Part shown: in pieces, positions 37,675 through 37,866 of the stretch
How positions within the stretch are numbered: position 1 is the first letter of the stretch
Layout: the number at the start of each line of letters is the position of its first letter
Assembly: GCA_964016885.1 (NCBI GenBank)
Contig: CAXHJY010001100.1
Span: 62,001 to 126,000 of the forward strand
From: Eledone cirrhosa
Taxonomy: Eukaryota
Reading direction: 5' to 3'
DNA: 64,000 nucleotides
The notes under the pieces: model-generated
Seen by the model: only the letters and a program-made list of their open reading frames with translations
The model's database searches: none
What the model was told of the DNA's origin: nothing
Position numbers and translations under genes: made by a program

Positions 37675-37866
37675 CGAAGGAAATGTGGTAAGGAACCAGG
37701 TGGACCATAACGCACCAAAGTACTCAATACTTGAGGTAGTAGAGTGGGTAATAGGAACCAGTAAGACCCCGACAGCTGAGCTCAAGCCGTTTCGACGGCT
37801 AATTCTGTCCAGAATTAGCCGTCGAAACGGCTTGAGCTCAGCTGTCGGGGTCTTACTGGTTCCTAT
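37671..37866. mobile_element. Family D fold-back element (perfect 57-bp arms turning on ribozyme stem II)
   Basis: Arms 37751-37807/37810-37866 plus an 80-bp tail. Other copies at 41041-41234, 59984-60171, 60200-60393, 60435-60623 and 63521-63725. Confidence 0.8.

Follow-up and report, generated by a model that had tools for sequence, protein, structure and literature searches.

Palindromic copies of a Penelope-like element in Eledone cirrhosa: two fixed 3′ ends, a shared stop within a hammerhead motif, and a proposed origin by two-ended priming

Family D copies in the window and their parent element

The window, i.e., the whole 64-kb stretch of Eledone cirrhosa DNA analysed here, contains seven copies of a repeat termed family D, all of them within (TA)n. 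The focal copy includes a perfect 57-nt inverted repeat, with halves at 37751-37807 and 37810-37866 and a spacer of 2 nt. It is flanked on the left by its (TA)n target (37639..37673), and a shorter (TA)n follows 37866. The long arm (37671..37807, minus strand) begins at the long 3′ end (CCTTCGT-TAT), covers the tail and the hammerhead 3′ half, and ends 14 nt before GAAAC. The short arm (37807..37866, plus strand) begins at the short 3′ end (TTCC-TAT), ends 17 nt before GAAAC, and overlaps the long arm by 1 nt. The tail, of about 80 nt (37671..37750, minus strand), lies between these fixed 3′ ends and, in full elements, runs on into the 5′ UTR and the ATG. The hammerhead 3′ half (37813..37863, plus strand) comprises the helix II 3′ strand, GAAAC (37824), helix III with a palindromic loop, GTC (37844-37846) and the helix I 3′ strand, with cleavage predicted after 37846.

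Below, arm positions are counted from the G of GAAAC, taken as 0. Long+short palindromic copies occupy 59983..60172 (arm stops at -9 and -15), 60199..60394 (another subfamily, in the same (TA)n as the previous copy and tail to tail with it) and 63521..63725 (centre 63662-63664, both arms ending at A(-18), each with an extra G); at 60400..60625, a short-end fragment accompanies a long+short copy of a third subfamily. A single (TA)n tract, at 59983-60625, stacks three insertions from three subfamilies, and the mirror at 60093-60277 consists of two independent tails, back to back. The palindromes described in an earlier reading made from the sequence alone (the sequence-only reading) are real: the focal 57-nt repeat is exact, and the four others are present, starting at 59983, 60279, 60434 and 63601. 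Their short arms finish, as that reading stated, at TTCCTAT/TTTCAT, merging into (TA)n. The copy that it had centred on stem III also exists, at 28522..28660, with its arms joined via 5-bp helix III complementarity (GCCGT, 28637-28641). The seventh copy (41041..41235), which had been overlooked, consists of a short arm (41041-41080), a 5-nt fold-back (41081-41085), a T-run and a long arm from about -21.

A 33-mer of the family D motif has 30,733 exact matches in the 3.0-Gb genome, and its reversed control has none. Long copies reach up to 2.8 kb upstream, into an ORF, and at one locus an intact 724-aa frame is flanked by two repeat copies about 3.5 kb apart. Where an upstream repeat is present, its ribozyme is followed, in this order, by TTCC-TAT, a stretch of about 80 nt, CCTTCGT-TAT, the 5′ UTR and the ATG. 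The continuation of long ends is by far most often TATATAT (201 cases, versus 15 read-through), and a genome pattern search found 28,943 long ends followed by TATA. The 724-aa ORF had no significant match in Pfam or PDB, and its reverse transcriptase (YRDD) and C-terminal GIY-YIG endonuclease (VIY...YIG) were therefore assigned by motif and by eye; a Pfam GIY-YIG hit, at E 0.014, was obtained for one of 24 homologues. Homologues number 403 at E up to 0.001, and are about 700 aa long and unnamed. The ORF also carries RWR in place of RWK, SDKTG (DKT), a CxCX5C linker (CNCPDGSIC), and C-terminal CxxC (CNLC) and CxH (CKH) motifs, with no CCHH. The traits listed for the Hydra clade are a single ORF, GIY-YIG, RWK, DKT, CxCX5C, no CCHH, and CxxC/CxH (PMC8557442). 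We assign family D as the terminal repeat of a very abundant Hydra-clade Penelope-like element (PLE).

Two other assignments were rejected. A 714-aa ORF at L062:453-2597 (minus strand; Pfam RVT_1), considered as the parent, belongs to a different element; this ORF, with reverse transcriptase and GIY-YIG-like regions, is that of another Penelope-type element and lies directly after a family D long end. Nor is family D a non-LTR retrozyme: the motif is contiguous with the ORF-bearing unit, and most copies are without the core. Small tandem arrays of the family D repeat were observed at G000:C3:214146541-214147931 and L086:5063-5501, with units of about 273 nt and about 200-230 nt, respectively; their layout is retrozyme-like, and the ribozyme core is absent where seen. 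Elsewhere in the window (2040-3656, 1002-1512, 36345-36735 and 47508-47904) there are a 29-nt minisatellite of 56 copies and a common tandem SINE-like repeat of 180-210 nt.

The hammerhead motif of the terminal repeat

The sequence-only reading had recognized GAAAC-stem III-GTC-GGGG as the 3′ half of a hammerhead fold, and this identification holds. In the parent, GAAAC is preceded by ACCCC-YTGANAA-G-NT-CGGCTATT, an insert of 35-40 nt, and then AATTAGCCG-TC; AATTAGCCG is predicted to pair with CGGCTATT, which lies about 45 nt before it. Folded jointly with RNAalifold, 16 copies give as their consensus a predicted type I hammerhead, with three helices at the junction and helix I open. In single-copy minimum-free-energy folds, the hammerhead is clear in two of four copies (z from -2.2 to -0.3). 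One of 24 pairs is altered on both sides in the 16-copy alignment, whose copies are too close for covariation. A complete ribozyme copy gave no Rfam match up to E 10, and a search with the window gave, among the matches listed (150 of 461), miRNA-like hits only, below the gathering score.

The half missing from the palindromes had been expected to carry CUGANGA. Full copies with a 5′ core upstream do exist, with 3,806 matches genome-wide to a strict pattern, but their core is YUGANAA: in 38 local copies it is UUGANAA (U3-A8) in 31, with G, U, A or C at position 7, and CUGAGAA in seven. The latter copies, with a C3-A8 mismatch, are predicted to be impaired. CTGANGA itself occurs upstream of GAAAC in one match for the window's context, and in 43 heterogeneous matches to a loose pattern; we rejected these as the true core, as junction or chimeric products, and excluded them from the breakpoint counts. 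The CTGAAGA at 60488 is such a junction product, and its 20-nt context is single in the genome. The CUGAGAA subfamily (ribozyme region of L172, L098, L066 and L173) still has many young copies, and so cleavage may be dispensable or may occur in another register. Long arms end at the predicted cut, at +22..+24, in 6 of 100 insertions, some of which ACCC/GGGT microhomology may explain; as evidence for self-cleavage, these stops are weak. Family D is a high-copy hammerhead family that escapes both Rfam and CUGANGA descriptors.

A second hammerhead-like family in the window has a canonical core (CTGATGA...GAAACAG...CTGTA) and ends in (TA)n, at 6778-6844, 8915-8953 and 53946-53984 (minus strand); the copy near 6800 is head to head, and relatives lie at 9278, 27224 and 49453 (minus strand). 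In this it is like the motifs given for Hydra elements. Other motifs of the CTGANGA/GAAAC or GAAAC kind occur singly at 61508-61535 (minus strand), 40269-40299 (minus strand) and 28907-28931, and probably belong to other PLE families.

Ends, stops and junctions of the two arms

Insertions finish at either of two TATs (TTCC-TAT or CCTTCGT-TAT), followed by (TA)n, and these fixed sites, separated by about 80 nt, are where the arms begin. Palindromes whose centre gap does not exceed 30 nt comprise 7,848 long+short, 65 short+short and 80 long+long ones, so that unlike ends are paired in 98%; the three search patterns differ slightly in length and cover the commonest spacing only. Multi-kilobase insertions mostly keep the long+short layout. 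The short arms had been thought to be resolved by TA microhomology. However, the short end also terminates copies without a palindrome and, like the long end, it lies on a parental TAT; for these reasons we regard it as a priming site, not a resolution point. The one-sided extension of about 80 nt is, as we interpret it, the 'tail' of Penelope-like elements. It is probable, in our judgement, that these insertions were primed from two ends.

The arms also share a stop. Both end 12-22 nt before GAAAC, mostly at the A of TTAGT/TCAGT, and often with an additional G. In 100 sampled palindromes, all with centres of 90 nt or less, the end of the longer arm falls at -17, -18 or -19 in 50. Only 2 of the 200 arms pass -22; about 10 reach -20 to -22, beyond the start proposed below, which A-runs or U-run slippage may explain. 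The breakpoints are non-random, as the sequence-only reading had it. When mapped on the fold, the hotspot sits on the weakest computed hairpin (-1.7 kcal/mol, compared with -7.1 kcal/mol for stem III).

An unselected set of 100 insertions comprised every long-end match within the first 22.8 Mb of contig C1. In this set the long arm ends in the tail in 20 cases, within -1..-27 in 56 and beyond that range in 10; a further 8 long arms end at 0..+21, and 6 at +22..+24. Where the long arm stops at -1..-27, the short arm stops there too in 46 of 56. Classified by script, the set gives 46 stop/stop, 5 pass/pass and 4 discordant insertions. Four of the 100 combine a hotspot stop with a passed one; two of these look like over-extension across AT-rich junctions, and L170 is possibly another. 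Among the first 100 core-bearing matches, counted by eye, 48 form 24 inverted pairs, and for 40 of the 52 unpaired ones the partner passes the stop in 19, stops at the hotspot in none, stops earlier in about 7, and was untraced in 14. Where one arm passes the stop, its partner passes too in 43 of 43 cases (the 24 pairs and the partners of 19 singles). On these counts, whether the stop is passed depends on the insertion and not on the individual arm. In 16 hand-picked copies that span the whole ORF, the stop in the upstream repeat is passed in 12 and not reached in four, and none ends at it. Six mini-tandems link an end at -17..-21 with early ORF sequence, which is what jumps of the template at an RNA end should give.

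Where an arm that ends at -18 meets a -12 arm, the base following the -18 end, scored by eye in 92 cases, is C in 53, G in 35 and T in 4. The C reads as G on the sense strand, giving 53 of 92 versus 4 for the control base; after arms ending at -14, the base is C in 3 and T in 17 of 20 (Fisher p 1e-10). This comparison is confounded: slippage onto TTTCGA could account for the C, a template probably accounts for the 35 G cases, and among the -14 arms that serve as the T control there is a subfamily with a templated T. In some subfamilies TATTTAAA lies about 29 nt upstream of the stop A. By comparison with consensus sequences, we take TATTTAAA to be TATA-like and TTAGT/TCAGT to be initiator-like; a by-eye search for a downstream promoter element found none in register. 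In L1, an untemplated G is associated with cap copying (PMC9341517). Rotifer pLTRs likewise have TATA- and Inr-like motifs (PMC3846280), and the internal promoter of Penelope includes an initiator (PMC2377424). The interpretation we favor, and consider somewhat probable, is that the palindromes are truncated insertions, made by two-ended priming, in which both cDNAs ran off a capped RNA 5′ end within the hammerhead.

Two alternatives account for the hotspot differently. The first, to which we give a minor chance, is that priming is two-ended but the -12..-22 hotspot reflects a stall, on some RNA molecules only, at the helix II apical hairpin or at a bound protein, the latter serving as a template boundary as in telomerase. 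The hotspot does coincide with the 3′ strand of the apical hairpin predicted in several subfamilies, the A-runs that follow ...GGACT might come from UUU being copied repeatedly at a block, and a block on a given molecule would likewise make both arms agree. However, the apical hairpin is weak and is missing from the alignment consensus, while stronger helices are passed; none of the 12 full-ORF copies that reach the upstream repeat stops there; and the extra G is not predicted. The second alternative, which we consider improbable, is that the RNA ends near -18 arise by endonucleolytic processing in loop II and not by transcription start. The shared barrier and the jumps would be explained equally well, and a GUC is present at -17..-15, but no helix III partner is seen for it and many arms run beyond it to -17/-18; a capped start is a better fit to the extra G and to the pyrimidine-purine context.

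The sequence-only reading had proposed instead that the cDNA stalls and self-primes on ribozyme hairpins. Several results bear on this fold-back. First, in 11 of the 100 unselected insertions the long arm does not get beyond the tail, whereas the inverted short arm extends to the usual hotspot; the short arm thus holds sequence never copied by the long arm, which fold-back cannot give. A later deletion is an unlikely cause, since the end points of the short arm are undiminished. Second, in long insertions either arm may be the longer one, by hundreds to thousands of bases, and in the 100 palindromes the end points of the two arms are uncorrelated (rho -0.04). Third, junction overlap in those palindromes is 0-1 nt in 51 and 2-4 nt in 7, with insertions, including local duplications and A-runs, in 42; several junctions are loopless. 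These junctions look like end-joining of two cDNAs. Fourth, the presumed axis, a ribozyme stem formed by GACGGCTAATTCTG and CAGAATTAGCCGTC, is not a stem of the parent: GACGGCTAATTCTG is absent there, being only the reverse complement that the inversion creates, and the hairpin at the axis arises in the same way.

The arms were also compared for their sequence variants. In the 100 palindromes, after 2 were dropped for indels and 11 were left unassigned, both arms belong to the same subfamily in 84 of 87, where 19% would be expected. Thus the claim that each palindrome had its own template stands insofar as the arms are of one template class, but the shared variants, which had been taken as copy-specific, are subfamily marks; CTTACTGG with the C19T change, for example, marks 56 of 196 arms. 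Of the candidate private variants, 4 are common to both arms and 77 occur in one arm only, and so one RNA is not told apart from two RNAs of the same locus. Fold-back would account for arms of a single subfamily, and helix III pairing does explain rare junctions (28637-28641, 41081-41085 and a few of the 100). Overall, we consider fold-back largely refuted and very improbable. Least credible is an origin after insertion, by hairpin repair or gene conversion, or an assembly artefact: assembly is difficult where palindromes lie in (TA)n, and such sequences are prone to repair, but neither the 98% long+short rule, nor arm-specific mutations (a mean of 1.2 differences in 40 nt), nor the identical layout of multi-kilobase insertions would be expected of an artefact.

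A proposed mechanism for the palindromes, and comparison with known systems

In the mechanism we propose, the GIY-YIG domain would cut both strands of (TA)n, and each DNA 3′ end would pair with a UAU, about 42 or 122 nt after GAAAC, and be extended, plausibly by a protein dimer. The commonest template would begin at A(-18)/G(-17), probably the capped 5′ end within the ribozyme, giving cDNAs of about 60 and 140 nt, i.e., 'strong-stop' products. The cDNA ends would then be joined head to head, with an overlap of 0-2 nt or with short templated or A-run insertions. Because both arms of the long and partial-tandem copies pass the stop, these would derive from a second template class without the stop end, either a circle or a read-through RNA. 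This second class agrees with the circle proposal for Schistosoma PLEs (PMC4209133). In L002, L020, L027, L005, L011 and L030 (around 1400-1540), family D arms are fused at the hotspot to pieces of a different element, one that has CTGAAGAGGTCACAG, suggesting jumps between different PLE RNAs.

A more specific version, which we offer tentatively, is that transcription starts inside the element's own hammerhead. The capped mRNA would then have both priming sites near its 5′ end, ribozyme cleavage would remove the 3′ ones, and long or tandem copies would come only from cleaved, circularised or jumped templates. The palindromes would be retrovirus-like strong-stop cDNAs in pairs, made by a protein dimer with one active site for each fixed priming site. 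If true, this version would unite PLE tails, inverted pLTRs and partial tandems in one scheme.

The twin priming of L1, reportedly to be credited to Ostertag and Kazazian (2001), uses a variable second site and gives pieces without overlap. In family D, by comparison, the two sites are fixed, and overlap between the arms is usual. In both cases two sides of a break are involved; in L1, they prime on one RNA, resulting in a 5′ inversion (via PMC2246262).

Earlier publications already describe this class of element, an inverted repeat that carries a tail on one side, and the U3-A8 core variant; two-ended priming or a strong stop for PLEs was not found in the literature searched. By eye, the protein resembles the printed part of Hydra-1_Obim (PMC8557442). 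Hydra-clade PLEs and family D are alike in their single ORF, (TA)n target and hammerhead in the terminal repeat. They differ in that Hydra-clade units are usually under 3 kb and that of family D is about 3.5 kb, and in that a canonical CUGANGA motif is listed for Hydra-1_Obim, whereas family D has the U3-A8 core and a long helix II; we also count as a difference the tens of thousands of family D copies (PMC8557442). The U3-A8 variant has been described in Schistosoma Cercyon PLEs, which share with family D the core covariation, a palindromic loop III and the location in a PLE terminal repeat (PMC4209133). According to the same paper, dual motifs occur on opposite strands, and the templates are proposed to be circular. 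In family D, however, helix III has 5 bp and helix II carries an insert of 40-45 nt, and a monomeric fold is therefore predicted.

PLE inverted repeats, one-sided tails and partial tandems have been named as an open question (PMC8557442, PMC11167929). Penelope elements of Adineta vaga have inverted pLTRs with an optional tail, for which self-priming on an antisense template was proposed, on the basis of few copies (PMC3846280). As in family D, the repeats are head to head, the tail is on one arm only and the junctions are palindromic; the tail is 31 nt in Adineta vaga and about 80 nt in family D (PMC3846280). The family D counts, which come from thousands of young junctions, argue against self-priming for this family. 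The proposed mechanism makes exact predictions: priming at two particular nucleotides, a single RNA 5′ end, and templates of two classes. The intact ORF makes it testable in a published in vitro assay. In that system, Poseidon PAc, cutting and extension take place in vitro on both strands of AT-rich DNA, a dimer is predicted, and two internal initiation sites define a tail, as in family D (PMC11167929). For Poseidon PAc, no difference in start site between the strands is reported and priming occurs without homology, whereas family D uses one site of each kind, both on TAT; inverted arms and a 5′ stop, which are seen in family D, are not addressed for Poseidon PAc in the part of that paper considered here (PMC11167929).
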